From: an uncultured Thermodesulfobacteriota bacterium
GTDB taxonomy: Bacteria; Desulfobacterota; DSWW01
DNA: 64,000 nucleotides
Assembly: GCA_964384945.1 (NCBI GenBank)
Contig: CAYLMK010000004.1
Coordinates: 264,109-328,108 of the forward strand
Direction of reading: 5' to 3'
The position numbers were made by a program, and so were the translations under genes. The notes under the pieces are model-generated. The model ran no database searches. It was given only the letters and a program-made list of their open reading frames with translations, and was not told where the DNA came from. Positions 11,942 to 59,949 of this stretch are shown in pieces. Each line of letters begins with the position of its first letter. The stretch's first letter is position 1.

Positions 11942-13084
11942 CTACGCCTGGGACGGTTTTGGAGGGAGCCTTTGCAACAGGGCCGGGTCCTTGGTGAAGG
12001 GCTCGAACATCTTGCCCCACTCCCTGGCAATCAGGATGTCCATCAGCTCCGACTTGCCCCCGCCGCGAACCTTCTTCATCTCGCTCTGCATGGTCTCCAG
12101 GGCCCTGTCCACCTCGGGCCCGAAGAGATAACGCAGGTAGGCCGTCGGAATGCGCGGCTTGGTGGTGTCGATCTTCCCGGTCTCGTCGAGCCTCGGCGGA
12201 GCCAGAGGAGGAACGTAAAACACATTCGGTTCGGTTCCGTATTCCGGGTGGAGGGGCAGCGCGACCTTCCAAACCTTCACGAGTTTGTGGATCGGCCCTT
12301 TTTCATCGTCCAGGAAGCCAAGGAACCGTACGCGGCCCGTGCACTGCCTGGCGCAGGCGGTTGCCACCTCCTGCTCGAGACGCGGGTAACAGAAGATGCA
12401 CTTCATGCTCGTCTTCGTGACGAAGTTGAAATAGATCACCTTGTACGGGCAGGCCTCCAGGCAGAACCGGTAGCCCTTGCACCGGTCCTGGTCGATCACG
12501 ACCGCGCCGTCCTCTTCCCGCTTGTAGATCGCGTTGCGCGGACAGGCATCGATGCAGGCCGCGTATGTGCAGTGGTTGCAGATGCGGGGAAGGTAGAAGT
12601 AGAAGGCGTTCGGGTATTTCCCGCCTCCCTGGTCCTCATCCCAGTTCATGGACCAGTCCGGCTCCGTTCCGTCCGGGTTGCGGGCCTGCAGGTGCTTCTC
12701 TCCCGCCTGGGAGGAGAATACCTCCTCATAGTTGAATTTCCAGAGATCCCCGAAGTCCTTCCGCGTGGGCAGCTCCCCGCGCACCGGGTCCCTGACCTTC
12801 CCGCCGAAGAGCACCTGGTACCCGCCGCCCTTGCGCTCCCAGTCCTTGGGAGACCCTTTCCCGGGCTGTGTGTTCACTTTGTTCCACCACATGTATTCCC
12901 GACCCTCAAGCTGGGTCCAGAGGGACTTGCACGCCATCGAGCAGAGCTGGCATCCGATGCATTTGTTCAGGTCCATCACCATGGCAACCTGGCGCTTGCA
13001 CTCGCGCAGCGTCTCCTTGGCGGCCTGAAACTCCAGGGCGAGTTCCTTTTCCCGTTCGGTCAGCTGTTTCTCGTCAACCGGCAT
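11942..13084 (-). CDS. Type II DMSO-reductase-family molybdoenzyme beta subunit (NarH/EbdB-like, 4 Fe-S clusters)
   Basis: RBS AGGAGAAG upstream of the ATG at 13084. Motifs: VMDLNKCIGCQLCSMACK, EYMWWNKV, CNHCTYAACIDACP, CKGYRFCLEACP, CIFCYPRLEQEVATACARQC. Confidence 0.9.
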   Translation of the reverse strand: MPVDEKQLTEREKELALEFQAAKETLRECKRQVAMVMDLNKCIGCQLCSMACKSLWTQLEGREYMWWNKVNTQPGKGSPKDWERKGGGYQVLFGGKVRDPVRGELPTRKDFGDLWKFNYEEVFSSQAGEKHLQARNPDGTEPDWSMNWDEDQGGGKYPNAFYFYLPRICNHCTYAACIDACPRNAIYKREEDGAVVIDQDRCKGYRFCLEACPYKVIYFNFVTKTSMKCIFCYPRLEQEVATACARQCTGRVRFLGFLDDEKGPIHKLVKVWKVALPLHPEYGTEPNVFYVPPLAPPRLDETGKIDTTKPRIPTAYLRYLFGPEVDRALETMQSEMKKVRGGGKSELMDILIAREWGKMFEPFTKDPALLQRLPPKPSQA

Positions 13085-13146
13085 GGTTCTTCTCCTGTCC
13101 CAGGCTGCGCGACCTTCCCGGAGGTCCCGCTTCGGGTTTGAATGCC

Positions 13147-13830
13147 TCAAACTTCCACCACGAGCCCCATCCACTCCTTGCTGAACGCCTTGACCCCTCC
13201 CCGTTCTCCGTTGGCGCCCTCCCAGGCGGCAAAACCGACCGTGAGGTCCTTCGCGCCCGGTTGGAGATTCACGGCCTCTTCGGCGACCGTGAGCGGGCGT
13301 CCGATGATCACGCACCACTTGCCCTGCTTCCAGTCCGAACAGGAGACGAGCGACGACTGGTCGGTGTAGAGGGAGGTCGCGAGCCCCCGGGCCACCTGGT
13401 TCTTGGGCTTCTCCTTGAAATCGGGCCTCCAGTACCAGCTGTTCGTGGGGTAGTCGTGGGAGCCCATCTCCTTGATCTGGGTCTTCTCCGGGTCCTTGAA
13501 GGGGAGCAGCACGGCGACGCCGTCCGGGAAGGTGCCGATGTCGCCGATCTCGAGGTTGGGCGCCTGGCTGTTCCATTCGATGTGGAAGAAGATCTCCTTC
13601 CCGTTGTGCACCGCCTTCACCTCGATCTCCTTGACCGCGCCGATCTTGGTCTCGTCAAAGGTTGCCTTGATATACGGCGAGGGCTGGTTGGCCAGGGGTG
13701 TCGCGCCCATCTCGATCCGATGTCCGTTCATGCCGGCCCAAACCGGAGCCTTGCAGTTCAGAAGCTCCTGGTGGGAAGCGGACACCTTCCTGACGATCAC
13801 GCTTTCCAACTTCTTTGCTTCCTCCGGCAT
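13147..13830 (-). CDS. Putative gamma subunit (EbdC/DdhC-like EB_dh heme-b domain protein), 227 aa, no obvious signal peptide
   Basis: Strong RBS AAGGAGG 8 nt upstream of the ATG at 13830 (MPEEAKK). Resembles ethylbenzene dehydrogenase gamma from memory (APVWAG, AVHNGKEIFFHIEW, NSWYWRPD, GANGERGGVKAFS). The ORF-track GTG start at 13914 is not favoured. Confidence 0.65.
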   Translation of the reverse strand: MPEEAKKLESVIVRKVSASHQELLNCKAPVWAGMNGHRIEMGATPLANQPSPYIKATFDETKIGAVKEIEVKAVHNGKEIFFHIEWNSQAPNLEIGDIGTFPDGVAVLLPFKDPEKTQIKEMGSHDYPTNSWYWRPDFKEKPKNQVARGLATSLYTDQSSLVSCSDWKQGKWCVIIGRPLTVAEEAVNLQPGAKDLTVGFAAWEGANGERGGVKAFSKEWMGLVVEV

Positions 13831-13935
13831 TTCCGATGCCTCCTTTCGTGAGTCTATGATCTGTAAGCTGTTAGCCATTAGCTGTTGGCCCACCCCGCAC
13901 CCTGGTGCCGTCACTCTTTCGGAGACCGGAGGCCG

Positions 13936-14026
13936 GGCCTGACCCGTGACCCCTGTCCTTTCGCCCTTCGCCTTAACTTGATAATTGCGACCTGATCCCT
14001 GACCCCTGGGCCCTGATCCCTCAACC
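13936..14026. repeat. Two blocks of tandem heptamer repeats (CCTGAYC on plus strand, GGGRTCA on minus strand) between the alpha and gamma genes
   Basis: cctgacccgtgacccctgtcc and cctgatccctgacccctgggccctgatccctcaacc. The same heptamer family occurs at 27401-27423 and 59256-59285. Confidence 0.6.
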
Positions 14027-14029
14027 TTG

Positions 14030-16942
14030 CTACGTCTTCTTCACCTCCACGGCAATCGCGCGGTCGACCGGCTGCAGACACCAGTTCCACCGGTAGTAGT
14101 TCAGGTGACCGTATCCGGCTGCCAGATCCAGCCACTTGATCATCCCCGGGATGGCCGTGTCATAGCTCTTCCACTCCTTGAACATGAAGGGCTCCCAGGC
14201 ATGGTAGATGATTACCTGTCCGGGAGAGGTCCCCTTGCCGGGCCGGGCCGCCGGGCTCACCTTCACATGGATCCGGAACTCGTCGAAGTCGTTCCAGACC
14301 CTCACCAGATCCCCGTCCCGGATTCCCCGCTTTTCGGCATCCTCGGGATTCATGAACATGAACGGCCGCCCCTGATGGGTCCGCATGAGCTGCTCGTCCG
14401 TGATCCAGATGGAATGCACGCTCCAGCGCAGATGCCCGCTGGTCAGGGTCAGGGGATAGTTCCCTCCCATCTTCGGGTTGGGCTTGTGCACGGGCATCTG
14501 TTCGCCGGCCTCGAGGTGCCACGGGTGATCCAGGTAGAATTGCAGCCGCCGGTTGTAGGTGGGATAGGGGAGCTTCTTCGAGCCCGTGTGCCAGGTAAGC
14601 GGCACGATCGGCTCGTCGGGCTTGATGTCTGTGGCCAGGTGCATGGTGATCGGATCGAAGATCGACAGCCCGACAAAACGAACGATGCCCTCTTCGCGCA
14701 TCTTTGCCAGATTGGTTCCTTGCGGAAGGTTGCCCATCATCACGCTCGTCTCCAGGGCGTCTTCCATGATCTCTTCCAGGTTGCTGCAGCCCATGGCCTG
14801 CTTCTCTCGCAGGTTCTCGAGATCGACCTTTCGGCCGCTTCGAAGCTGGAACTCGGTCTTGCCCCTCTTCCGGGCCTCCTGTTCGATCTTGCCGGCGAGC
14901 ATCACGCAGATCTCCCACTCGTTCTTGGCCTCGCCGGGAGGCTCGACCGCCTTGTCCGTCAGCGTCAGCCAGGGAACATGGGGCGTGGGAAAGCGGGTGT
15001 CGAGCTTTTCGTAGAAGCCGGCGCAGGGCAACACGTAGTCGGAGTAGAGAACCGTCGTGCTCCAGCGGGTCTCGAAACCGAAGACGAGCTTGTACTTCTT
15101 CCAGAGGCTGGGCAGTATGTTCTTGTTCCAGCCCCGGTTTTTCCGCGCAGGGCTGGTGCCGATGTAGAAATAGACCGTGGGCTCCTGGTCCGCATAGGGC
15201 AGGGCAAAGCCCTCCCACCACTTTTTTTCCAGGGCCTCCTTCATGTACTCCGGGAATTCGCGCTTCATGGTGGGGCAGTGCCATTCCCTCCTGTCCCAGG
15301 CATCCTTGTACCCGGAATGGAAATAGTAGAGGAAGGCCGGCGGAACCATCGTGTATTCCGTACGGTTTCGCTCCCGCTCGAGCAGCACCGAGAGCATCTC
15401 GTCCGTCCGGGTCGGGTCTTCCGCCTTGAACCGGTTCACGATCCGCTTCTCCTGGGCCAGCCGGAGAGTCGCGCCCAGGGGTCCCCTCTTGGACTTGATG
15501 GCCTGGAAGAGGGCCCCCTCGAACAGGGATTCGTTCCAGCCCCGGATCCCGCTTCCCTTCCTTCCGTAACTGCCGGTCAGGGCCAGAAGAAGGCACATGG
15601 CCCGCTCGATCAGATCTCCATGATAGTACTTGCACGCGTTCCATCCCACCAGCACCTGGATGTGAGGCTTGGCCTTGGCGCACTTCTCGGCAAGGCGGCG
15701 GATCGTGTCCGGGTGGGTTGCACAGTGCGGGGAGGCCTTCTCGGGCGTGTAGTGCCGGTCGAGCTGCTCCTTCAGGAGCGCGAAGGACGGCCGCACCTCG
15801 GCCTGCCCGCCGTCAAGCAGCTTCACGATGAAGGTCCCCTCCAGGGCCGGGTCCACGGGCAGCTTGAGCGTGTCCAGCGGGGCCTTTACGGGGCCCCCTT
15901 TGGCCGCATCCCAAAAATAGAACTGGTCGTCCCGTCCGCCCTGCTCCAGATCCGCAACCCGGAGAAACCGGCCCGTGTCCGTTCGGACCAGCAGGGGAAG
16001 ATCGGTCTGCTCTTTGATGAAGGGGATGTCGATCCAGCCTTTCTCGATCAGCACCTGGCAGACGGCGAGCCCGAGGGCCGCGTCCCCGCCCGGCTCCACG
16101 GGCACCCACTCGTCGGCGTGCATCGCGCTCGGCGAGTAGTCCGGCGCGATCGTCACCACCTCGGCGCCGTTGTACCGCGAAGAGGCGATGAAGTGATAGG
16201 AGGGGATCCGGGTGTAGACCGGGTTCATGTGCCAGATGAGCAGCAGCTTTCCAAAGAACCAGCCGTCCACGGAGTCCATGAACTGAAACTTGCCCACGCT
16301 CTGGTAGATCCCGCGGTTGAAGTCCCCGATCGTGGAGTCCAGATCCAGGGAGGTGCCGCCGAGAAAGTTGAGCAGCCGCGAGGCAGGGATCAGATTCAGG
16401 TATCCTCCGTTTCCCGGGCCTGTCTCGTTGATGATCGACTCGGGGCCCTGGGACTCCAGGCCGTCGAGGATCCCGGAGGCGATCTCGGAGAGGCACTCGT
16501 CCCAGCTCAGCCTCTTCCACTTCCCGCTGCCGCGCTCGCCCACCCGCTTCATCGGGTACTTGAGCCGGTCCGGGTTGTACATCATGTGGCTGTAGAAGGC
16601 CCCCTTCTGGCACCCCCGGGGGTTGAAGTCCGGGCCGGTCGGGTCCACCACCGGGTACTTGGCCGCCTGCTCCTCCCGGAAGACCACCCCGTCCTTTGTG
16701 TAGACGCGCCAGAGGCAGTTTCCCGGGTAACAGTCCACCAGGTGCGTCCCGTACGTCACCTTGTCCCAGGTCCATTCCTTCCTGTGCAGGTCTTCCCACC
16801 TGGCGTAGTCCCACTCCTGGACGACCTTCTCCGTGGCGCAAGCATTGCCCCCCAGGAAACCCAAGGATCGCAAGGAGAGCATCAGCGCGGAAGCGCCCGA
16901 AACCTGAAGAAACTGTCTCCGGTCAAGCTTGATCCCCTCCAT
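14030..16942 (-). CDS. Type II DMSO-reductase-family molybdopterin oxidoreductase alpha subunit, Tat-exported (NarG/EbdA/NxrA-like)
   Basis: RBS AGGAGG upstream of the ATG at 16942. Twin-arginine signal MEGIKLDRRQFLQVSGASALM. FS0 motif HLVDCYPGNCLWRVY...PRGCQKG (H-x3-C-x3-C-xn-C). RLKYPMKR as in NarG. Its ATG overlaps the ferredoxin stop (TGATG). Confidence 0.9.
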   Translation of the reverse strand: MEGIKLDRRQFLQVSGASALMLSLRSLGFLGGNACATEKVVQEWDYARWEDLHRKEWTWDKVTYGTHLVDCYPGNCLWRVYTKDGVVFREEQAAKYPVVDPTGPDFNPRGCQKGAFYSHMMYNPDRLKYPMKRVGERGSGKWKRLSWDECLSEIASGILDGLESQGPESIINETGPGNGGYLNLIPASRLLNFLGGTSLDLDSTIGDFNRGIYQSVGKFQFMDSVDGWFFGKLLLIWHMNPVYTRIPSYHFIASSRYNGAEVVTIAPDYSPSAMHADEWVPVEPGGDAALGLAVCQVLIEKGWIDIPFIKEQTDLPLLVRTDTGRFLRVADLEQGGRDDQFYFWDAAKGGPVKAPLDTLKLPVDPALEGTFIVKLLDGGQAEVRPSFALLKEQLDRHYTPEKASPHCATHPDTIRRLAEKCAKAKPHIQVLVGWNACKYYHGDLIERAMCLLLALTGSYGRKGSGIRGWNESLFEGALFQAIKSKRGPLGATLRLAQEKRIVNRFKAEDPTRTDEMLSVLLERERNRTEYTMVPPAFLYYFHSGYKDAWDRREWHCPTMKREFPEYMKEALEKKWWEGFALPYADQEPTVYFYIGTSPARKNRGWNKNILPSLWKKYKLVFGFETRWSTTVLYSDYVLPCAGFYEKLDTRFPTPHVPWLTLTDKAVEPPGEAKNEWEICVMLAGKIEQEARKRGKTEFQLRSGRKVDLENLREKQAMGCSNLEEIMEDALETSVMMGNLPQGTNLAKMREEGIVRFVGLSIFDPITMHLATDIKPDEPIVPLTWHTGSKKLPYPTYNRRLQFYLDHPWHLEAGEQMPVHKPNPKMGGNYPLTLTSGHLRWSVHSIWITDEQLMRTHQGRPFMFMNPEDAEKRGIRDGDLVRVWNDFDEFRIHVKVSPAARPGKGTSPGQVIIYHAWEPFMFKEWKSYDTAIPGMIKWLDLAAGYGHLNYYRWNWCLQPVDRAIAVEVKKT

Positions 16943-17226
16943 CAAGGCCCTCCTTTCCCGGTGGTTGCGGCCCGAATCGGCCCCTCGGCCCTCACCAGGC
17001 GAATGGCGTCCCAGGGGCACCCGAAGATGCGGGATCCCCTGGGGCCCCGCGCCACACAAGCGCCGCAGCCCGTGCAGAGGGCCGGATCCGCCTCCACCCT
17101 CTTGAATGGAAAATGATCCGCGTCCTCGATCAGCCGAAGGGCTCCTTGGGGGCAGTAGATCCGGCAGACGGGCCTGCCCCCGCAGCCCGTGCATCCCTCC
17201 GAGACGAAAGCTACCCGCGTCTGCAT
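16942..17226 (-). CDS. 2x[4Fe-4S] ferredoxin
   Basis: CTGCGGRPVCRIYCP and CTGCGACV...GCPWDAI are two CxxCxxC...CP cluster motifs. Its stop overlaps the alpha-subunit start. Confidence 0.8.
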   Translation of the reverse strand: MQTRVAFVSEGCTGCGGRPVCRIYCPQGALRLIEDADHFPFKRVEADPALCTGCGACVARGPRGSRIFGCPWDAIRLVRAEGPIRAATTGKGGP

Positions 17227-18997: not shown

Positions 18998-19131
18998 ACC
19001 CCTGCCCCGCGACGATCGGCGGGGTTGAACCCGGGGCCCCGGGCGCAATAGACTGCGCCTGATGCGGCTTGCGCCCCGACGCGAAGGGGTCACGTCGAAA
19101 GAGGCGCTGCCAGCGGAGGTGGCCAAAGGCC

Positions 19132-20619
19132 ATGCGCTTCCGGCACGTAGGTGTTCTTGCCCTTTTCTCGGTTTTCCGGATTGCGACGGGTTGCGGTGGG
19201 GGCGAGGAGGGCCATGTTCCTGCCTCGGGGCCTCCCCCGGGGCTGCCGGATTTCCTTTGGGGAAGCGCGACCGCGGCTCATCAGGTGGAAGGGTTCAACA
19301 CGCAGAACGATTGGTATCTCTGGGAGATGCTCCCCGGCAAGATCGACAACGGCGATCTGTCCGGCGCCGCTGCGGACCATTACCGTCGCTTCGACCAGGA
19401 CTTCGCCCTGGCCGAGCGGATGGGGCACAATGCGCACCGCTTCTCGATCGAGTGGAGCCGCATCGAACCGGCCAGGGACCAATACGATCCCGAGGCGATC
19501 GCGCACTACCACGAGGTCCTTGCCTCGCTTCGCAGGCACGGCCTGACGCCGCTGGTCACGCTCCACCATTTCACGAATCCCCAGTGGGTCTTGAACCCTC
19601 TTCGACCGGACAAGGACCTGGACGGTTGGCTTGGGGAGCAGACCGTGGAGGAATTCGTCGAGTTTGCGGCTGACATGGCCGCCGAGTACGGCCGCGAGGT
19701 GGACCTGTGGATGACCATCAACGAACCGCTGGTCGTGGTCGACGGCACCTACTTCGAAGGGGGCTTCCCCTCGGATCTGCCGCCCTTCCACCTGGAGGAG
19801 GGCCGGCTGGCGGCCTTCCATCTGTTCCAGGCCCATGCCGCGGCCTACCGCCGAATCCACGAGAAGGACACCTGGGACGCGGACGGCGACGGAAGCCCCT
19901 GCCGGGTCAGCGCGGCCAAGCACATACGCATCATGGAGCCCATGAACCCGAAGAACCCCTGGGACCGGGAGGGGGCCGCTCAGGTCGATTATGTCTTCAA
20001 CCAGGTCTTCTTCGATGCGCTCCTCGACGGGATGGTGGATGCCGACCTGGACGGAGACCATGACGATCTCGGAACCAATCCGCCGGAGGGCTTCCACGCC
20101 GAGCTGGCAAACACCCTGGACTACATCGCGCTGAACTATTACAGCCGGTCCAAGGTCGTGGGTTTGCCGTTCATCCCGTACGTAAAAGGCCTGCCCCTGG
20201 AAAACCCGGATCCGGACGTGGAGCACAACGAGATGGGCTGGGAAATCTACCCGGAGGGGTTCTACCGGACCCTGAAGCGATTCGGGGCTTACGGGCTACC
20301 GATCATCGTGACCGAGAACGGCATCCCGGACCGGGACGACGATCAGAGGCCGCAGTTCCTCCTCCGGCACATCGATGCGATGTTGCGAGCCATGGAGGAA
20401 GGGATTGACGTGAGGGGATACCTGCACTGGTCCCTGATGGACAACTTCGAGTGGGCGGAGGGCTTCTGGCCCCGCTTCGGGCTCGTCGCCGTGGACTACG
20501 ATACGCAGGAGAGAACCCCCCGGCCCTCGGCGGCCCTGTACACGGATATCATCCGCGCCGGGCGTATCCCGGACGAGATGCGTCCGCGGGCGGGCCTGCA
20601 AGGGGGAGGGCGGAGATGA
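19132..20619 (+). CDS. Glycoside hydrolase family 1 beta-glucosidase, probable lipoprotein
   Basis: GH1 signatures FLWGSATAAHQVEG, TINEP and IVTENG (acid/base and nucleophile Glu). N-terminus MRFRHVGVLALFSVFRIATGCGG is a signal peptide with a lipobox-like Cys. Confidence 0.85.
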   Translation: MRFRHVGVLALFSVFRIATGCGGGEEGHVPASGPPPGLPDFLWGSATAAHQVEGFNTQNDWYLWEMLPGKIDNGDLSGAAADHYRRFDQDFALAERMGHNAHRFSIEWSRIEPARDQYDPEAIAHYHEVLASLRRHGLTPLVTLHHFTNPQWVLNPLRPDKDLDGWLGEQTVEEFVEFAADMAAEYGREVDLWMTINEPLVVVDGTYFEGGFPSDLPPFHLEEGRLAAFHLFQAHAAAYRRIHEKDTWDADGDGSPCRVSAAKHIRIMEPMNPKNPWDREGAAQVDYVFNQVFFDALLDGMVDADLDGDHDDLGTNPPEGFHAELANTLDYIALNYYSRSKVVGLPFIPYVKGLPLENPDPDVEHNEMGWEIYPEGFYRTLKRFGAYGLPIIVTENGIPDRDDDQRPQFLLRHIDAMLRAMEEGIDVRGYLHWSLMDNFEWAEGFWPRFGLVAVDYDTQERTPRPSAALYTDIIRAGRIPDEMRPRAGLQGGGRR

Positions 20620-24256: not shown

Positions 24257-24796
24257 TCAGTGGAGCGTGCGGCCGCCGACCGATTCGCTTCTTCGTATGC
24301 CTTCGAGCACGGCCAGGAGCCTTCGGAGCTTCACGATATCCAGGCAGGACGAAAGATCCTTCCGGCCGCAGATCTTCTCGCAGAGGCCTTCGAGCCTCCG
24401 CTCGTCGCAGTCCTCCAGTCGAGAGAACACCTGGCGCGCCCGGGCCTGAAGGGCGAAGGCCTGTTTCCGCCTCTTGCTCAGGGGAGGGCCGAACCTTGCC
24501 CGGGGGCCCTGAAGGGGCCGCCAGCCGCGCGCGGCAAGGTGTTCGACAAGCCTCTCCATCTCCTCGACCGACAGGTCGCCCGCCGATGGAATGCCGAACT
24601 CGCCCATCAGCAGGGCGCGGTAGTCCGCCGCTCGCATGCCGAGTTGCTTGGCTGCAATGTGGATCTTTGCCAGCAGCGCGCGACGGCGGGGCCCGACCGG
24701 GTCGGGGGACGGCGGGCTCCCTTTCCTGTCGCTCTGCTCCCGCGTCTTCATGGGCCGTTCCGGTTTCGGTTGCATGTACAGCCGATGGCCTTTCAT
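24257..24796 (-). CDS. Mu gp16/GemA-like (DUF1018) phage-derived regulatory protein, orphan
   Basis: C-terminal part of a longer junk ORF. RRALLAKIHIAAKQLGMRAADYRALL...LSVEEMERLVEHL matches the GemA-family pattern. Protein-like composition only from about 24796 downward. Confidence 0.55.
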   Translation of the reverse strand: MKGHRLYMQPKPERPMKTREQSDRKGSPPSPDPVGPRRRALLAKIHIAAKQLGMRAADYRALLMGEFGIPSAGDLSVEEMERLVEHLAARGWRPLQGPRARFGPPLSKRRKQAFALQARARQVFSRLEDCDERRLEGLCEKICGRKDLSSCLDIVKLRRLLAVLEGIRRSESVGGRTLH

Positions 24797-24892: not shown

Positions 24893-27394
24893 ATGACGGC
24901 AAGCCAAACGGTCCAACTGCGAACCGGCAGGGAAGAGGCGCAACGCTCCAGGTTCCTCGACGCCCTGGTAGAGGGCATACATGGCGGGAAGGCCGACTTT
25001 GTGAGATCCATCGCCGAGCAGCCCGGCCCTTCGACGGAGCGAAACCGCCGGAGGCGGGAGGCCTTTTTCAACACCCCCTTCAGCATCTGCATCGAGCGCG
25101 CCCGCTTCTTCACCGAGAGCTTCCGGACAACGGAGGGGGAGCCCCAGATCCTGCGGATGGCCAAGGCCTTCCGCCACTATCTCGAGAACGTGACGCTGGT
25201 CCTGGATGAGAGCGACCTGTTCGCCGGATATGCGGGCGGAAAGATGCTCTGTTCGCAGATCTATCCCGAGCTCTCCTCCACGTACCTGGACGAGGATGCC
25301 TGGGACGAGGCGAGCACGTTCAACATCAACCCGGTCGAAATCGGTCCGGAGGAGATCGCCGAGCTCAAGGAGACGGCGAAGTACTGGCGCGGGAAGTCCC
25401 TTCAGGACTACTACAACCACATCAAGCCTCTCAACGACGACCTTGTCCATCGGCACGGGCTCATCTTCGCCTATAACATGCTCGCCGGGATCGGGCACGT
25501 GATCGTTGACATCCGGCGCGGGCTCGAGCGCGGGCTCGGCAGCGTCCGGGACGAGGCCCTCCGTAAGGCGGCGCGCCTGCAGAGCCGCCCCGAGGACGCG
25601 CTCACGCCCCGGAAGATTCTCTTTTACAAGGCGGCGGCCGTTGCGATCGAAGGGCTCCTCGCTTACGCGCACCGGTATGCGCGACACGCCGAGGAGATTG
25701 CAGGACGCGAGGGTGACGGCGCGCGGCGCGCCGAGCTGATCCGCATTGCCGAGGCATGCCGCCGGGTGCCCGAGTACCCGGCGCGCAACTGCTTCGAGGC
25801 CCTGCAGTGCATGCTCTTCCTGCTTGTCGCGAACCAGATGGAATCGAGCGAGATCTCGATCTGCCCCGGCCGGATGGACCAGTGGCTCTATCCCCTATAC
25901 AAGAGCGACTTGGAGCAGGGCGTCTTTTCGAGGCAGGAGATCATCGAGCTTCTGGAAAACATCCTTGTGAGGCTCGGTCAGAGTTCATGGCTCTACAGCG
26001 GGCGGCAGCAGGGGCTCCTGTTCTACCCGAAACGGGGAAACCTGGTCACCATCACCCTGAGCGGCAAGGACATGGACGGCCGGGATCTCACGAACGAGCT
26101 GACCTACCTGATCCTGCACGCTCATGCGAACAACCGCCTTGGTCACCCGTCGCTGGCCGTCAGGCTGCACGAGAACTCCCCGGAGGCGCTGCGCGAGGCA
26201 TGCGCCCGCGTGATCGGGACGGCCAAGGGCCAGCCCGGCCTCATGAACGACGAAGTCATGATCCCGGCCCTCCTCCGCCTCGGTTTCGAGAGGCGGGACG
26301 CCTACGACTACGCGGACATCGGGTGCATTGAAATGGGGAGCGCAGGCACCTCGATCGGGCCCTCGAGCATCGGGTTCGTGAACCTGGCCAAATGCCTCGA
26401 ACTCGCCCTGCACAACGGGCATTGCAGCCTGTTCAAGGACCCGGTCGGCCCGGAGACCGGGGACGCACGCGCCTTCACCACCTACGACGAGCTCTTCCGT
26501 GCCTATGCCGAGCAGGTCCGCTTCGCCGTGACCTGCTTCAATCAGTCGGTCTCGGCCATCGAGATGGGCCACGAGCTGCTCAGGCCCATCCCGTTTCTCT
26601 CTTCCATCACCGACAACTCGATGGAGTCGGGACTCGATCTGACCAACGGCGGATCCAAGTATTATTTTGCCGGTATCGAGGGCATCGGCGTGGCAGACGT
26701 GGCCGATTCCCTCGCCGCGGTGCGCAGGCTGGTCTTCGAGGAGAAGAAGATCCCGATGGGCGAACTCGTGGACGCCTTGTCGAACGACTTTGCCGGCAAT
26801 GAGCGCCTGCGCCGGATGCTTCTCCACGGGGCCCCCAAGTTCGGCAACGACGACGACTACGTGGACGAGATCGCCCGGGCGAGCTCGACCGTGTTCCTCG
26901 AAGAGGTAAAGAGACACAGGGATTACTGGGGAAGCGTGTACAATCCGGGGATCTGGTCCATCGAGCTGGCCATGATCCTCGGCGGGCTCGTCGGCGCCCT
27001 GCCGAGCGGCCGGCAGGCCTGCGCCTCCCTCGCCGAGGGCGTAGCCCCCTCGCGCGGATGCGATCGGTGCGGCCCCACTGCGACCTTCAAATCGGTGGCG
27101 AAGCTCGACCACCACCTGATGGAAAACGGCAGCATCTTCAACATGAAGTTCAATCCCCGGATGTTCGAGGACAGGAACATCCGACGGTTCGCGGATGTGA
27201 TGAAGACCTACTTCGCCCTGGGCGGCTTCCAGCTTCAGGTGACCGTGGTCGACAGGCAGACGCTGCTCGACGCGCGGGAGCGGCCGGAGGAGCACCGCGA
27301 CCTTGTCGTCCGGGTCGCCGGATACAGCGCGTACTTCGTCGAGCAGTCCCCCCGCGTGCAGGAGCACCTCATCGAGCGGACCGAGCATTTCTGA
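24893..27394 (+). CDS. Glycyl radical enzyme, PFL2/glycerol-dehydratase-like family (833 aa)
   Basis: RBS GGAGG 9 nt upstream. C-terminal glycyl radical motif RVAGYSAYF. Catalytic DIGCIEMG (Cys-x-Glu, as in GD/CutC/HypD-type GREs). N-terminus SICIERARFFTESFRTTEGEP is typical of the PFL2 subfamily. Confidence 0.9.
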   Translation: MTASQTVQLRTGREEAQRSRFLDALVEGIHGGKADFVRSIAEQPGPSTERNRRRREAFFNTPFSICIERARFFTESFRTTEGEPQILRMAKAFRHYLENVTLVLDESDLFAGYAGGKMLCSQIYPELSSTYLDEDAWDEASTFNINPVEIGPEEIAELKETAKYWRGKSLQDYYNHIKPLNDDLVHRHGLIFAYNMLAGIGHVIVDIRRGLERGLGSVRDEALRKAARLQSRPEDALTPRKILFYKAAAVAIEGLLAYAHRYARHAEEIAGREGDGARRAELIRIAEACRRVPEYPARNCFEALQCMLFLLVANQMESSEISICPGRMDQWLYPLYKSDLEQGVFSRQEIIELLENILVRLGQSSWLYSGRQQGLLFYPKRGNLVTITLSGKDMDGRDLTNELTYLILHAHANNRLGHPSLAVRLHENSPEALREACARVIGTAKGQPGLMNDEVMIPALLRLGFERRDAYDYADIGCIEMGSAGTSIGPSSIGFVNLAKCLELALHNGHCSLFKDPVGPETGDARAFTTYDELFRAYAEQVRFAVTCFNQSVSAIEMGHELLRPIPFLSSITDNSMESGLDLTNGGSKYYFAGIEGIGVADVADSLAAVRRLVFEEKKIPMGELVDALSNDFAGNERLRRMLLHGAPKFGNDDDYVDEIARASSTVFLEEVKRHRDYWGSVYNPGIWSIELAMILGGLVGALPSGRQACASLAEGVAPSRGCDRCGPTATFKSVAKLDHHLMENGSIFNMKFNPRMFEDRNIRRFADVMKTYFALGGFQLQVTVVDRQTLLDARERPEEHRDLVVRVAGYSAYFVEQSPRVQEHLIERTEHF

Positions 27395-27400
27395 GAAGCA

Positions 27401-27423
27401 GGGGTCGGGGTCAAGGGGTCAGG
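27401..27423. repeat. Tandem GGGGTCR heptamer repeat (G-quadruplex-like) between the convergent GRE and FadL gene ends
   Basis: ggggtcggggtcaaggggtcagg. Same family as the repeats at 13936-14026 and 59256-59285. Confidence 0.6.
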
Positions 27424-27431
27424 CGACGGAT

Positions 27432-28787
27432 TCAAAACCGGAACGTGAGTTCCGCCCCGAAGTTCAGCACATTCCCGCTCGAGGTCAGGTCCGGGTTCAG
27501 GGTGAACGGGTTGTCCGGCACGGCCCGGTTCCAGTGCTCGCTCCTCAGGATGTGGTACTGGAAGAACCCGTCCACGGTCAGGGGCTTGGCCAGGATGCCC
27601 CACGGAGCGTCGAAGGTGTACCCAACGCCTGCGGAAGGCACGAACCGGTCGTTGCCGATCGGATAGAATCCGGTCGGCTGGTTCGTGACGGGCGTGGGCT
27701 CGTAGTAGAATCCCCCTCGCACGTTGAGCCTCCGGGTCACGCGGTAGACGGCCCCGATTCGGGGAACCACGGTGTTGTTGAATTCGGGATCGAGCGATCC
27801 TCCAAGCGGGCCCCCGTAGCCGGCCCACCGGTACCAGGTCACCTCCCCGGTGACCCTCCACCGCTCGCTGATCCGATAGGCGGCGCCGAAGGAAACGTTG
27901 TCAGGCGCAAAGCCGCTCACATAGCTTCGTTCCAGGGTTTTTTGCGGGGGAGGAGTCAGCGGAGGGTCCGTATCATCCCAGCCCGGCGGTAGCTCGTCGA
28001 GGGAGTTCCAAGTCAGGCTGGATTCGATCTCGCTTTTCTGGCGGTAGACCAGGCCGATTCGAAGCCTCTCGGTGGGCCGGAGCAGAAGGCCTGCCAGCAG
28101 GGAGGGCGAACCCAGACGGGCGCTCATCTCAAACGGGCCGATCGTGACCTGCTCGACAGGAGGGCCTATTCCACCCGGAACGGTTGTCTCGCTGAGGTAC
28201 ACGTTGGCAGGCGTCACGACCTGCGAGACCAGGCCGAGGCCCAGGTAGAGGGCCGAGGTGATCCGGGTGGAGACCCCGAGATGGAAGGCGAGCGTTGCGT
28301 TGCGCTCCTGGAAGATCACGTCGAACGGAAAGGTCTGGTCGATCACCCGCGTGGTGACCAGGGCCTGCCGCGGCAGGAAGAAGCCGGCGCCGATCGCCCA
28401 GGGCATGGGCAGGCGCCTGGGGGTCAGCCGCTGAACCGGCAGCACGAGGCCGAAGGCGGGGCCGGTGATCGTGTCCAGGTCGCCCTGCTTCCGGGGGAAC
28501 TGAACAAGGTCCTGGTCAGCTCCCTGGTCGTAGTCGGTCCGGATGTTCGGGCTTGCGCTGAAGACCCCGATGGAGAACTCGATGTCCTCGGAGAGGGCCA
28601 GGGCCGCGGGGTTGTAATAGACCGAGGCCCAGCCCTCGGACAGGGCGGCCATGGCGTTGCCCAGGGCCATGCCGCTCGCGCTCGCCCCAAAGGTATCGAA
28701 GAAGCCGGCCCCGGCCGGGCGGATGGGAGCCGCCAGCGAGAGCAGGAGTGCCACAAGAAGGAAGGAGGGCCTTCGGTTATCGGTCAT
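27432..28787 (-). CDS. FadL/TodX-family outer-membrane hydrophobic-compound transporter
   Basis: Signal peptide. N-terminal GMALGNAMAALSEGWASVYYNPAALAL is the FadL signature. C-terminal aromatic residue (TFRF). Its ATG overlaps the stop of the acyl-CoA ligase (ATGA). Confidence 0.8.
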   Translation of the reverse strand: MTDNRRPSFLLVALLLSLAAPIRPAGAGFFDTFGASASGMALGNAMAALSEGWASVYYNPAALALSEDIEFSIGVFSASPNIRTDYDQGADQDLVQFPRKQGDLDTITGPAFGLVLPVQRLTPRRLPMPWAIGAGFFLPRQALVTTRVIDQTFPFDVIFQERNATLAFHLGVSTRITSALYLGLGLVSQVVTPANVYLSETTVPGGIGPPVEQVTIGPFEMSARLGSPSLLAGLLLRPTERLRIGLVYRQKSEIESSLTWNSLDELPPGWDDTDPPLTPPPQKTLERSYVSGFAPDNVSFGAAYRISERWRVTGEVTWYRWAGYGGPLGGSLDPEFNNTVVPRIGAVYRVTRRLNVRGGFYYEPTPVTNQPTGFYPIGNDRFVPSAGVGYTFDAPWGILAKPLTVDGFFQYHILRSEHWNRAVPDNPFTLNPDLTSSGNVLNFGAELTFRF

Positions 28788-44186: not shown

Positions 44187-45830
<1,644 letters not shown>

Positions 45831-57852: not shown

Positions 57853-59175
57853 ATGATCCCATCCCCGCTTTACGAAGCCTATATGGAGGTCTACACTCCG
57901 GACCGGTTCATGGAGTTCTACGCCTCCATCGAACAGGAGCTCTTCCTTCGAGCGAACCCCTCCCGGCCGATCCCCTTCTCCCCGGTTCCCATCGTCCTGG
58001 ATCCAAGGTTCGAGGCCCGATTCATCCGGGCAGTCTCTCTGCTCTGGAAAATCTTGAAAAACACGACCTATCGCGAGCTTTCCGCAGAGGGCATCCCGAA
58101 ACCGCTTCGCCCTCCTTCCCAAGACATGCCGGAGATCGCCTTTGATCCGGACCACAACATCGGCTGTATCGACCTGCACATCCACCAGGGGGCCCTGAGG
58201 ATGATCGAGTTCATGGTCCTTCCCCCTGGGTGCGTCGGAGTCTACCCCGGTATGCTGGATCATTACGGATCCTATTTGCGATCCCTTCTGCCGGACCGCA
58301 GCGCCGCTTGTTTTCGCGAAGGATGGAGCCGGGAAAGGTGCGAAGAGGTCATGCTCGCACAGATCATCGGGCGGGGCGAGCCGGAACGGATCGCGATCGT
58401 GGACTGGGAGCCGCAAGGGCAGGTCACCTACGGCGAGTTCTGTTACACCCTCGACATGCTGTCGAAGAGAAGGGGGGTTCAGGGCGTCATCGTCGACCCA
58501 AGGGAACTCGCGATGGAACGGGGGAAGATCTTCGCAAAGGGGCTCCGGATCGACCGGATCCTCAACCGGCTCACGCTGCTCGACTGGCGTGCCCATCATG
58601 CCGAGATCGAACTCTACACCCGCCTCCTGTGGGAGGCCCCGGAAACTTTCTCTTATCACCCCTATCTGTGGTATCTGGGGGACAAGAGTTCCCTGACGCT
58701 GCTCTCCGATCCCTCGGCAATCAAGAAGATTGGGCTCTCCGCCTCCGAGGTCGAGCAGATCGCCGCCCTGGTGCCGCGGACCTTGCCCCTGGCCTCCTTC
58801 CGCTCCAAGGGAAGCCGCACAATCGATGCAGGCGGTCTGGTCGAGAGCTTCGGCAGCCCGTCGAACATTGTTTTGAAACCTCTCTCCTCTCACGGCTCCA
58901 AGGGGATCGTCTTCGGTCCCACGGATACGCCGACCCGAGAAGCCCTCGAGAGGGCGCTTCAAAACATCGATCCGACGGAGTATTCCGTCATGGAATATGT
59001 TCCGGTCCCCGAAATCCAGGTGCCTCGCGGCGGCGGCGTGCGCGAAACATGGCACTGGGACCTGCGGATCTTTGTCCTGAACAGCCGGTACGTCTTCCCC
59101 GGCGGCCGGGTCTACTTCGGCGACTACACGAACCAGGTTCCGTGCAGGGGGTTTGCCCCGCTCTTTTTCGCCTGA
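57853..59175 (+). CDS. ATP-grasp-like protein (circularly permuted or glutathionylspermidine-synthase-like), divergent from gshA
   Basis: ATP-grasp-like elements NIVLKPLSSHGSKGIVFG, VMEYVPVPEI and DLRIFVLNSRYVFPGGRVYFGD. No confident family assignment. Confidence 0.6.
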   Translation: MIPSPLYEAYMEVYTPDRFMEFYASIEQELFLRANPSRPIPFSPVPIVLDPRFEARFIRAVSLLWKILKNTTYRELSAEGIPKPLRPPSQDMPEIAFDPDHNIGCIDLHIHQGALRMIEFMVLPPGCVGVYPGMLDHYGSYLRSLLPDRSAACFREGWSRERCEEVMLAQIIGRGEPERIAIVDWEPQGQVTYGEFCYTLDMLSKRRGVQGVIVDPRELAMERGKIFAKGLRIDRILNRLTLLDWRAHHAEIELYTRLLWEAPETFSYHPYLWYLGDKSSLTLLSDPSAIKKIGLSASEVEQIAALVPRTLPLASFRSKGSRTIDAGGLVESFGSPSNIVLKPLSSHGSKGIVFGPTDTPTREALERALQNIDPTEYSVMEYVPVPEIQVPRGGGVRETWHWDLRIFVLNSRYVFPGGRVYFGDYTNQVPCRGFAPLFFA

Positions 59176-59232: not shown

Positions 59233-59949
59233 CTACAGTGGGACGGATGCGGGGCCCGACCCCTGACCCCTGACCCCTGAGCCCTCGAGAAGCTGAATCA
59301 CCTCTTCGTCGCTCAGGTCGTACCATTCCTCGTATGCGTCGGCAACGGCGAAAACGGGTCCTCCCCGGACGTTCGGGCAGACGAGCACATCGGCAACAGG
59401 CTGCAGGAGGGTGACCGTACGCTGAGAGGCCGTGGGTACGGCCACAAGGACACGGCTCGCCTCTTTCTGCCTCACGAATTCAACGGCGGCCATCATGGTA
59501 TAGCCCGATGCAAGCCCGTCGTCCACAAGGATGACCTGACGGCCCCTCAACTCGGGCAGGGGCCTGCCTCTTCGATAGACCCTTTGCCGGGACTCCAGGA
59601 CGCGCATGGTTTCCGCAACCTGCGCCTGGATCTCCTTCTGGCTCAGGCCGAGATCGTCAACGATCCGGTCGTTCAGGAGCACCTTTCCGTCCGGCCCGAT
59701 CGCGCCGAAGCCGGCCTCCGGGTTGTTCGGGATTTGGATCTTTCGAACGATCAGCACGTCCAGGAGCAGACGGTGCGAATTCGCCACCGCCCGGGCCACC
59801 GGCACGCCCCCGGCCGGGATCGCCAGGACCAGGCCCTCCGGATCCACAAGACCTTCCAGCATGGAGGCAAGCCTTTTCCCGGCATCTTCGCGGTCTGCGA
59901 AGACCCGTTTCTTGCCTCTCAGCTCAGAATCCTCGATCAGGTTGTCCAT
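59233..59949 (-). CDS. Phosphoribosyltransferase-domain protein (type I PRTase fold)
   Basis: PRPP-binding loop QVILVDDGLASGYTMMAAV. The last 10 codons (GVRGQGSGPA) are encoded by the GGGGTCA heptamer repeat. The internal ATG at 59949 was chosen because the ORF-track start is GTG with no RBS. Confidence 0.7.
   Translation of the reverse strand: MDNLIEDSELRGKKRVFADREDAGKRLASMLEGLVDPEGLVLAIPAGGVPVARAVANSHRLLLDVLIVRKIQIPNNPEAGFGAIGPDGKVLLNDRIVDDLGLSQKEIQAQVAETMRVLESRQRVYRRGRPLPELRGRQVILVDDGLASGYTMMAAVEFVRQKEASRVLVAVPTASQRTVTLLQPVADVLVCPNVRGGPVFAVADAYEEWYDLSDEEVIQLLEGSGVRGQGSGPASVPL
59256..59285. repeat. Tandem heptamer repeat cccgacc cctgacc cctgacc cctgagc (GGGGTCA on the minus strand)
   Basis: Third locus of the heptamer family. 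Overlaps the 3' coding end of the PRTase gene. Confidence 0.6.

Follow-up and report, generated by a model that had tools for sequence, protein, structure and literature searches.

We find that a 64,000-nucleotide stretch of DNA from an uncultured Thermodesulfobacteriota bacterium (contig CAYLMK010000004.1, positions 264,109 to 328,108; hereafter the window) carries tandem arrays of the heptamer GGGGTCA at the 3′ ends of three genes, which encode the alpha subunit of a molybdopterin oxidoreductase (site 1), a glycyl-radical enzyme (GRE; site 2) and a phosphoribosyltransferase (PRTase; site 3). These arrays are probably G-rich heptanucleotide simple-sequence repeats of an already known class, arising by slippage. 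What is new is the unit GGGGTCA itself, its spread over at least 120 genomes from many phyla, where it obeys the same placement rule, and the retention of arrays at these three gene ends in relatives whose proteins are 78-92% identical. A literature search returned no paper on GGGGTCA arrays in bacteria, only unrelated eukaryotic oligonucleotides. The arrays are strongly polar, are kept at the same gene ends over long evolutionary times, often with about four units, and can rewrite C-termini. The arrays and the genes that adjoin them, with gene identities taken from Pfam, are as follows.

Site 1, block a: 13986-14020, minus strand; five units, GGGATCA GGGCCCA GGGGTCA GGGATCA GGTCGCA, with the G-rich strand as sense.
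Site 1, degenerate stretch between the blocks: 13954-13985, minus strand; ATTATCA AGTTAAG GCGAAGG GCGAAAG GACA.
Site 1, block b: 13938-13953, minus strand; GGGGTCA CGGGTCA GG.
Molybdopterin oxidoreductase alpha subunit, ethylbenzene-dehydrogenase-like: 14030-17194, minus strand; the gene ending at site 1.
EB_dh (haem-b gamma-like) subunit: 13147-13830, minus strand; the next cistron after site 1, with its ATG at 13830 and ribosome-binding site AAAGGAGG.
Site 2: 27401-27423, plus strand; GGGGTC GGGGTCAA GGGGTCA GG, with unit lengths of 6, 8 and 7 nt.
GRE, with PFL-like and Gly_radical domains: 24893-27394, plus strand; the gene ending at site 2.
FadL/TodX-type outer-membrane transporter: 27432-28787, minus strand; convergent on site 2.
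Site 3: 59257-59284, minus strand; GGGCTCA GGGGTCA GGGGTCA GGGGTCG, four units encoding GSGVRGQGS.
PRTase: 59233-59949, minus strand; 238 amino acids from the ATG at 59949.
440-amino-acid gene without a Pfam match: 57853-59175, plus strand; convergent, ending 81 nt from the site-3 array.

The arrays are built from head-to-tail 7-nt units with a G3-G4 tract, in four blocks of 2-5 units each, and the variants GGGATCA, GGGCCCA and GGGCTCA stand beside GGGGTCA. Scanning the 64 kb for three GGGGTCA units in register, with at most four mismatches, we found exactly four such blocks at three loci (13986-14020, 13940-13960 and 59257-59284 on the minus strand; 27401-27421 on the plus strand) and none in 30 block-shuffled sequences. 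A 14-mer search of the window gave 6 matches against 1.19 expected, a number reached in 0 of 100 shuffles, and Tandem Repeats Finder (TRF) reported period-7 arrays at 13991-14021 and 59258-59285 (sites 1 and 3). The view of the initial annotation that a single heptamer forms a dispersed, non-random family at three loci is therefore upheld, at a density of about one locus per 21 kb in DNA with a G+C content of 62.7%. Sites 2 and 3 are base-identical in contigs of four independent assemblies (L001-L005) and so are no assembly artefact; the window also matches a 395-kb JGI metagenome contig (Ga0484859_0000007). Site 1 had been described as one locus from 13936 to 14026. Heptamers do lie there, but as two blocks with about 32 nt of degenerate heptamers between them. 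This degenerate stretch is heptamer-like, out of register with block b, and missing from two relatives (L223 and L227) whose arrays run uninterrupted; block b matches the 3′ portion of the one array that relatives have, where GGCCC comes next.

The G-rich strand is the sense strand at all three gene ends in the window, as had been noted from the outset. Read off the sequence, the gaps on the 5′ side of the arrays are 9, 6 and 0 nt and those on the 3′ side 107, 8 and 81 nt; two sites are intergenic, and one lies within the last 17 codons of an open reading frame (ORF). At site 1 the alpha-subunit gene, whose start is uncertain (the JGI call is 970 amino acids), ends with a TAG stop at 14030-14032, and block a begins 9 nt past it. 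Because the downstream EB_dh gene starts at the ATG at 13830, the site falls within a 199-nt intercistronic spacer (13831-14029). At site 2, where the units differ by 1-nt indels, the array begins 6 nt past the GRE stop and occupies most of the 37-bp gap between the convergent GRE and FadL/TodX genes. Arrays occur on both DNA strands within the 64 kb and there is no GC-skew switch, so that their orientation is set by the gene and not by the direction of replication. In the source lineage the G strand is sense at 5/5 loci, namely at the alpha subunit, the GRE, the PRTase, a succinate dehydrogenase (SDH) Fe-S gene (in L303) and folD (in L221). The two strands have different coding properties. 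The G strand reads open in all frames (GGG GTC AGG GGT CAG GGG TCA), and an ORF can therefore run into an array and gain a GVRGQGS-type tail; on the C strand (TGACCCC) three units suffice to put a TGA into each of the three frames, and hence no ORF can cross an array there.

The same polarity is found in other bacteria. An exact search for GGGGTCAGGGGTCAGGGGTC, with one genome per species, retrieved at least 120 genome stretches which by their record titles belong to Planctomycetota, Acidobacteriota, Chloroflexota, Gemmatimonadota, Cyanobacteria, Verrucomicrobiota, Bacteroidota, Latescibacterota, Actinomycetota, Myxococcota, and Beta- and Gammaproteobacteria including Xanthomonas. Genes at these foreign loci were called heuristically, with the arrays masked, from the codon-position pattern GC1>GC2<GC3 and only for loci of at least 57% GC. 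This procedure replaced an earlier caller, based on length times GC3-GC2, that read through arrays, accepted shadow frames and gave other, misleading orientation counts; a method based on flank frames was dropped since it left too many flanks unclassified. Across 133 arrays of the genome and viral sets, the median distance to the neighbouring ORF is 6 nt 5′ of the G strand versus 73 nt 3′ of it (8 versus 90.5 nt in the genome set alone), and with these heuristic calls the array is nearer to the 5′-side ORF in 98 cases versus 31 (p = 3e-9). Within 50 nt, there are 65 same-strand (G-sense) gene ends on the 5′ side versus 26 C-sense ends on the 3′ side (p = 5e-5); a further 33 genes on the 5′ side start there on the opposite strand. 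The strand rule of the initial annotation, absolute in the window, is thus only statistical in other bacteria. No G-sense ORF enters 80 of the 104 genome arrays; about 12% of arrays look internal to genes, and about 10% have an ORF that reads in and stops soon, as in the PRTase.

Arrays also persist at the same gene ends in relatives of the source organism. Behind the GRE stop they are found in 5/5 lineages examined (the window plus four relatives with 82-92% protein identity) and are kept there though the downstream gene differs and the remaining spacer is unalignable. For instance, two or three large BNR_4-like genes are inserted directly behind the GRE array in L304 and L305, and the array persists; in L305 its G-tracts have decayed and the ..ATCA/GGTCA period is kept. 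In another relative, L306, the G-rich array behind a stop codon at an orthologous site is joined by an inverted C-rich array in a compact hairpin, GGGGTCAGG-GGTGG-CCTGACCCC (L306:12505-12600). Directly past the alpha-subunit stop, four units are present in both L223 and L227 and five in L303, in which an inverted C-rich array and then TTTT lie about 170 nt further on; this L303 spacer with its inverted partner (L303:266-556, minus strand) folds at -136 kcal/mol (z = -3.9). At the same stop L224 has a single unit, and the more distant relatives L225-L229 have none. Inverted array pairs also occur in L024, L062, L063 and L089, and the window's own three sites have no inverted partner. Two more arrays in relatives follow folD (L221) and the SDH Fe-S gene (L303). 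L221, with its array behind folD, has none at the PRTase, and in the window it is the other way round. Of the 13 arrays located by orthology, a phylogenetically dependent sample, 8 have four units; in the baited sample perfect runs drop from 67 with three units to 29 with four, so that a mode at four is biased by ascertainment. Differences of whole units are seen between species and none within the sampled population.

The PRTase illustrates how an array can rewrite a protein. The last 17 codons of its ORF consist of the array plus the read-on tail GPASVPL, the ORF ending ...EGSGVRGQGSGPASVPL (also given as ...LLEGSGVRGQGSGPASVPL) before the stop. The repeat had been taken to supply the last 10 codons, and in fact seven further codons come after it. 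That the repeat encodes the C-terminus is nonetheless correct, as distant orthologues of 226-229 amino acids end in ...LLEASGSY or similar. The tail had also been read as an insertion, and this does not hold: it is not private to the window, a clade of at least eight related lineages at 78-82% identity having the end GSGV(R/G)GQGSGP, and the array is continuous with native codons. Four-unit arrays are found in L218, as (GGGGTCA)x4, and in L220, as GGGATCG GGGATCG GGGGTCA GGGGTCA. The relative closest by PRTase identity (L221, 86%) has one unit only, GAA GGG TCG GGG AAA TAG. After LLEGSG the tails vary freely among close relatives, being K, VRGQGSGPASVPL, VRDQGTEVERVKGKGSRDG or VGGQGIPQGKG before the stop. 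In DNA the four units lie on the native E-G-S-G codons (GAG GGN TCN GGN). An array built on native Gly-Ser-Gly codons, together with the one-unit state of L221, points to expansion in place; the PRTase array is old and has given rise to a variable tail.

The genomes that carry GGGGTCA arrays are rich in heptamer repeats of other kinds. In the 828 kb around the arrays of 120 stretches, tandem arrays with three or more perfect copies total 197 at period 7 and 2, 5, 7 and 1 at periods 5, 6, 8 and 9, and 56 other heptamer units occur there; these genomes therefore have a general heptamer-repeat habit. Viral contigs show in addition that this particular unit is preferred. Of the six ways to arrange T, C and A behind GGGG, the ending TCA accounts for 59 stretches, ATC for 14, CTA for 13, ACT for 4, TAC for 1 and CAT for 1, so that GGGGTCA is 4 to 59 times commoner than the other five. 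As controls for the period in viral contigs, the octamer gave 6 stretches and the hexamer (GGGGTC)n at least 120, the latter being uninformative on non-coding repeats because it is compatible with coding. Unit degeneration has no polarity, imperfect units lying 5′ versus 3′ of the perfect core in 61 versus 60 cases. Heptamer arrays at least 150 nt away from the GGGGTCA arrays and at least three bases different from them (L006-L184) contain TCAG/CTGA in 6 of 35 cases versus 3.9% expected (p = 0.002). The sequences GGGTC, TGGTC and GTGTC are recognition sites of the phage T7 primase, and all three occur among the array units, which may be a coincidence. Elsewhere in the window, the gene for GroEL (44193-45830; Pfam Cpn60_TCP1) holds a perfect 9-nt tandem repeat, (GGCGGCATG)x3 at 45798-45824 on the plus strand, which is unrelated to the heptamers and encodes the GGM tail, a well-known feature of this protein.

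The initial annotation had proposed that every array gives the RNA a canonical G-quadruplex (G4) motif. Defined as four runs of at least three G with loops of 1-7 nt, this motif is present at 13997-14020 (site 1, block a) and at 59260-59284 (site 3, which has five G-tracts) and absent from site 2. There we count three runs of at least three G plus a GG, and the sequence that had been offered as an example of a four-run G4, having three G-runs, is therefore not a canonical four-tract motif. G4Hunter is strongest at site 3 (-2.12), reaches 1.96 at site 2 and stays below 1.5 at site 1, and the minimum-energy folds that ViennaRNA computes with G-quadruplex energies contain no G4 at any of the three sites. 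Within the window 41 regions reach a G4Hunter score of 1.5, namely sites 2 and 3 and 39 others, and canonical motifs number 9 in the whole window versus 11.8 in shuffles. At the level of predicted motifs, then, the G4 potential is real for two or three blocks and is neither uniform nor exceptional in this GC-rich DNA. The suggestion of a terminator-like element must be revised as well. Watson-Crick folding of the three sites shows no excess over shuffles (z of -0.5 to +0.6), and terminator scans gave no hairpin with T-run inside an array on the coding strand of the gene that ends at it. A promoter scan of the window gave nothing attributable to the arrays, and an Rfam scan of the whole window gave no match. 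The sole terminator match close to an array, a terminator-like hairpin with T-run next to site 2, TCGGGGCGGAACTCACGTTCCGG TTTTGAATCC, lies at 27438-27460 on the minus strand and overlaps the FadL/TodX stop; the GRE on the opposite strand has no comparable terminator, only the heptamer array.

Several observations concern the neighbourhood of sites 1 and 2. The genes at 11942-34931 look like a putative island for anaerobic activation of hydrocarbons or aromatics, with an ethylbenzene-dehydrogenase-like Mo enzyme (alpha, EB_dh gamma-like and 4Fe-4S subunits), a Rieske protein, MerR, an SDH/fumarate-reductase-like trio, the 833-amino-acid GRE, FadL/TodX, an AMP-ligase, a CCG/Fe-S protein and ETF alpha/beta. 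The subunit order in the window appears to be alpha, EB_dh (gamma-like) and 4Fe-4S (beta-like), and the order in ethylbenzene dehydrogenase is alpha-beta-gamma. The longest ORFs of the EB_dh (13147-13914) and 4Fe-4S (11942-13576) subunits, both on the minus strand, overlap, and both starts therefore need to be re-called. The closest named relatives of the GRE, at about 75-78% identity, are metagenome-assembled genomes labelled Candidatus Abyssobacteria, Hydrogenedentota and Poribacteria. Just upstream of the GRE and divergent from it is a 164-amino-acid ORF (24257-24751, minus strand) in which Pfam recognises a phage Mu GemA domain (E = 5e-10). This ORF keeps its position beside the GRE in L303-L305 and is unusual company for a metabolic gene. 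A glycoside-hydrolase-family-1 (GH1) gene lies in the window at 19069-20619, between an 88-amino-acid ORF and the SDH-like Fe-S gene. The 92% identical L303 is without it and has instead inverted GGGCAAA/GGGTCAA-type heptamer arrays (L303:5560-5760). Changes in gene content adjoin arrays both here, in the window versus L303, and at the BNR_4-like genes of L304 and L305.

How might such arrays arise? A short proto-repeat at a gene end would have been duplicated, and slippage of the strands in replication would then have added, removed and altered copies; the PRTase array may have started from GGG-TCN-GGG, the native Gly-Ser-Gly codons. A 7-nt unit disrupts the frame, so that an array would be tolerated only in non-genic DNA or among the final codons of a gene. 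We also suggest, tentatively, that the G-tract array, once transcribed, marks the 3′ end of the coding region by its structure. This structure could be a G4 or, where an inverted C-rich array comes after, a long stem, and could pause or terminate RNA polymerase or block 3′-to-5′ exonucleases. A number of findings weigh against this account. Slippage itself is unobserved, the arrays being identical in four independent assemblies, and the PRTase array keeps four units through about 20% protein divergence. Passive slippage explains neither the choice of unit (the 4-59-fold preference in viral contigs) nor the polar placement. With regard to a G4, there are three G-tracts at site 2, the G4Hunter score of site 1 is under 1.5, ordinary pairing is favoured by the thermodynamic model, and the orthologous L305 array is without G-tracts. 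Among 655 imperfect units, moreover, G1 is kept in 92%, C6 in 79% and A7 in 78% versus 70-75% for the inner G's, and in-register arrays of GGAGTCA, GAGGTCG and GTGGTCA, for which a three-tetrad G4 is impossible, are common.

Slippage could also have produced nothing but neutral microsatellite debris, functionless, located at gene ends since it would be lethal or frame-shifting elsewhere, and persistent through self-renewal. We regard this as possible but doubtful. It would fit with the published class of such repeats, for which no function was identified either, with the free variation of PRTase tails after LLEGSG, with the gain and loss of arrays per locus (folD in L221 versus the PRTase in the window), with G-tracts that are not always kept and with the symmetric degeneration of units (61 versus 60). 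However, mere tolerance predicts symmetric, strand-neutral placement, and the counts are 98 versus 31 (p = 3e-9) and 65 versus 26. Furthermore, the GRE-stop array is present in 5/5 lineages in which the spacer is otherwise unalignable and the neighbouring gene has changed, one array nearly fills a 37-bp convergent spacer, and one unit order is strongly preferred. Polar placement and long persistence together therefore suggest that the arrays are more than neutral debris. They might instead be periodic binding sites on DNA or RNA, with a core TCAG/CTGA every 7 nt and G-tracts of secondary importance, read by an RNA-binding regulator, by Rho loading on a C-rich transcript, by a nucleoid protein or by primase, although this seems unlikely to us. 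The best-kept positions of imperfect units are CA-G (positions 6, 7 and 1), the L305 orthologue retains the ..ATCA/GGTCA periodicity without G-tracts, GGGGTCA far outnumbers its permutations, and unrelated heptamer arrays are enriched in TCAG/CTGA (6/35 versus 3.9%, p = 0.002). The TAACTGA repeat of Beggiatoa and cyanobacteria reads GTTATCA on the other strand, in the same G...TCA frame, and its TGA strand is sense upstream of starts; C-sense GGGGTCA arrays are placed alike, 33 of them standing no more than 50 nt from a start. MacGregor suggested proteins of the S1, Csp or CsrA type as binders (PMC4679880). On the other hand, no candidate factor has been identified here, the enrichment sample is small and partly non-independent, and the window arrays are short (2-5 units). 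The placement rule also holds for the Xanthomonas (GGGAATC) and Nostoc (GGGGACT) units, which are without TCA, and is therefore independent of a TCA core. A wider version of this idea, to which we likewise give little credence, would have (GGGGTCA)n, TAACTGA (GTTATCA) and other ....TCA heptamers form one cross-phylum cis-element system, in which a conserved factor, instead of slippage, generates or reads the periodic TCAG/CTGA core and sets the polar placement. Such a system, in our opinion improbable, would put the G strand after stop codons and the strand with TGA in all frames before start codons.

Contingency (phase-variation) loci, in which the gain or loss of 7 nt switches the PRTase tail or the coupling of the alpha and gamma cistrons, are a very improbable explanation. 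A unit change at site 3 would indeed shift the frame of the tail, close relatives carry different PRTase tails, and site 1 lies between two cistrons of one enzyme. Yet the arrays are at 3′ ends and not in promoters or 5′ coding regions, the affected genes belong to core metabolism, four assemblies from different samples show no difference in copy number, and the number of PRTase units is four in three diverged lineages; Rehm et al. 2015 were likewise negative on this point for their repeats (PMC4692102). We find it hardly credible that the arrays are a miniature mobile element or a recombination footprint inserting at gene ends, as the initial annotation had entertained. One unit does recur at several loci, and differences in gene content among relatives adjoin arrays (BNR_4-like genes in L304/L305; GH1 in the window versus L303). 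The arrays, however, have no terminal inverted repeats, target-site duplications or conserved flanks; their block length varies in unit steps and they occupy orthologous sites; the PRTase array is continuous with native codons and L221 shows its one-unit state; the blocks are direct repeats only, with no Rfam match; and Rehm et al. 2015 found no tie of their repeats to insertion sequence elements or transposons (PMC4692102). We retain slippage-born simple-sequence repeats as the preferred reading.

Heptamers are the most abundant of the longer simple repeats in many large bacterial genomes, and the GGGGTCA case replicates, with a different unit and different organisms, the rule that arrays hug the ORF 5′ of the G strand. 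The breadth of the unit, this replication and the persistence of arrays at the same gene ends through 8-22% protein divergence jointly make a purely neutral origin less comfortable. There is also a consequence for genome annotation. Since the G strand is free of stops, automated gene prediction carries ORFs on into arrays, and the resulting C-termini of the GVRGQGS type, as in the PRTase, are spurious or change fast.

The arrays can be compared with several known systems. REP and BIME elements are imperfect palindromes that form hairpins. Like these and like intrinsic terminators, the arrays are intergenic, transcribed and at gene 3′ ends, and for both a stabilising effect on upstream mRNA has been proposed; unlike them, the window arrays are direct repeats without significant Watson-Crick structure (z of about 0) and without a T-run. 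Short tandemly repeated repetitive (STRR) heptamers have units such as CCCCAGT, and the other strand of STRR1, GGGGACT, is a permutation of GGGGTCA; we know of no STRR outside cyanobacteria. They differ from our arrays in base order, (GGGGACT)3 being 15 times rarer than (GGGGTCA)3 in viral contigs. Like our arrays, they are short tandem repeats dispersed in non-coding DNA. As cited in PMC4692102, STRR heptamers were reported for Calothrix PCC 7601.

MacGregor 2015 described TAACTGA direct repeats next to start codons in marine Beggiatoaceae, some Cyanobacteria and Bacteroidetes (PMC4679880). These too are dispersed intergenic heptamers (2-6 copies), patchy across phyla and a few nucleotides from an ORF boundary. 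Their opposite strand GTTATCA shares the G...TCA frame, and their TGA-bearing strand is sense upstream of starts, as in C-sense GGGGTCA arrays. In contrast to the window arrays at gene 3′ ends, TAACTGA is AT-rich, has no G-tract or G4 potential and lies mainly upstream of starts. According to the summaries in PMC4679880 and PMC4692102, Mrazek, Guo and Shah 2007 found that heptanucleotides dominate long simple-sequence repeats (LSSRs) and proposed slippage. Period 7 is dominant here as well (197 versus at most 7 for neighbouring periods), as in the 5-11-nt repeats of large GC-rich genomes in their study, which as summarised is a statistical survey without a placement rule and does not single out GGGGTCA.

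The closest match is the class of G-rich heptamers of Rehm et al. 2015 (PLoS One 10:e0144275, PMC4692102), GGGAATC in Xanthomonas and GGGGA(C/T)T in Nostoc PCC 7120. These authors counted about 186 arrays per genome, 89-93% of them intergenic and with a mode of four units, at a mean of 28 nt from the 5′ neighbouring ORF versus 160 nt from the 3′ one (PMC4692102). They further reported inverted convergent pairs, G4 formation in vitro and transcription of most arrays, with no function identified (PMC4692102). The unit GGGGTCA, which is neither GGGAATC nor GGGGA(C/T)T, is the sole defining feature of that class in which our arrays depart from it. Beyond this, the host is an uncultured anaerobe from metagenomes, the unit occurs in many phyla, and the G4, which Rehm et al. 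measured in vitro, is known here from motifs, with one of the three sites lacking four G-tracts. Otherwise the likeness appears close. The window arrays are tandem 7-nt units with a G3-4 tract, intergenic at two of three sites; over the 64 kb their spacing would be compatible with the roughly one array per 20-30 kb of that class, and about four units may be the usual number here too. They are in excess in non-coding DNA, overlap coding sequence only at ORF ends, have a small 5′ and a large 3′ gap, and form inverted pairs in relatives (L303 and L306), though not in the window. Lastly, as in Xanthomonas and Nostoc, they often stand between the same genes in related species while their length and sequence change.

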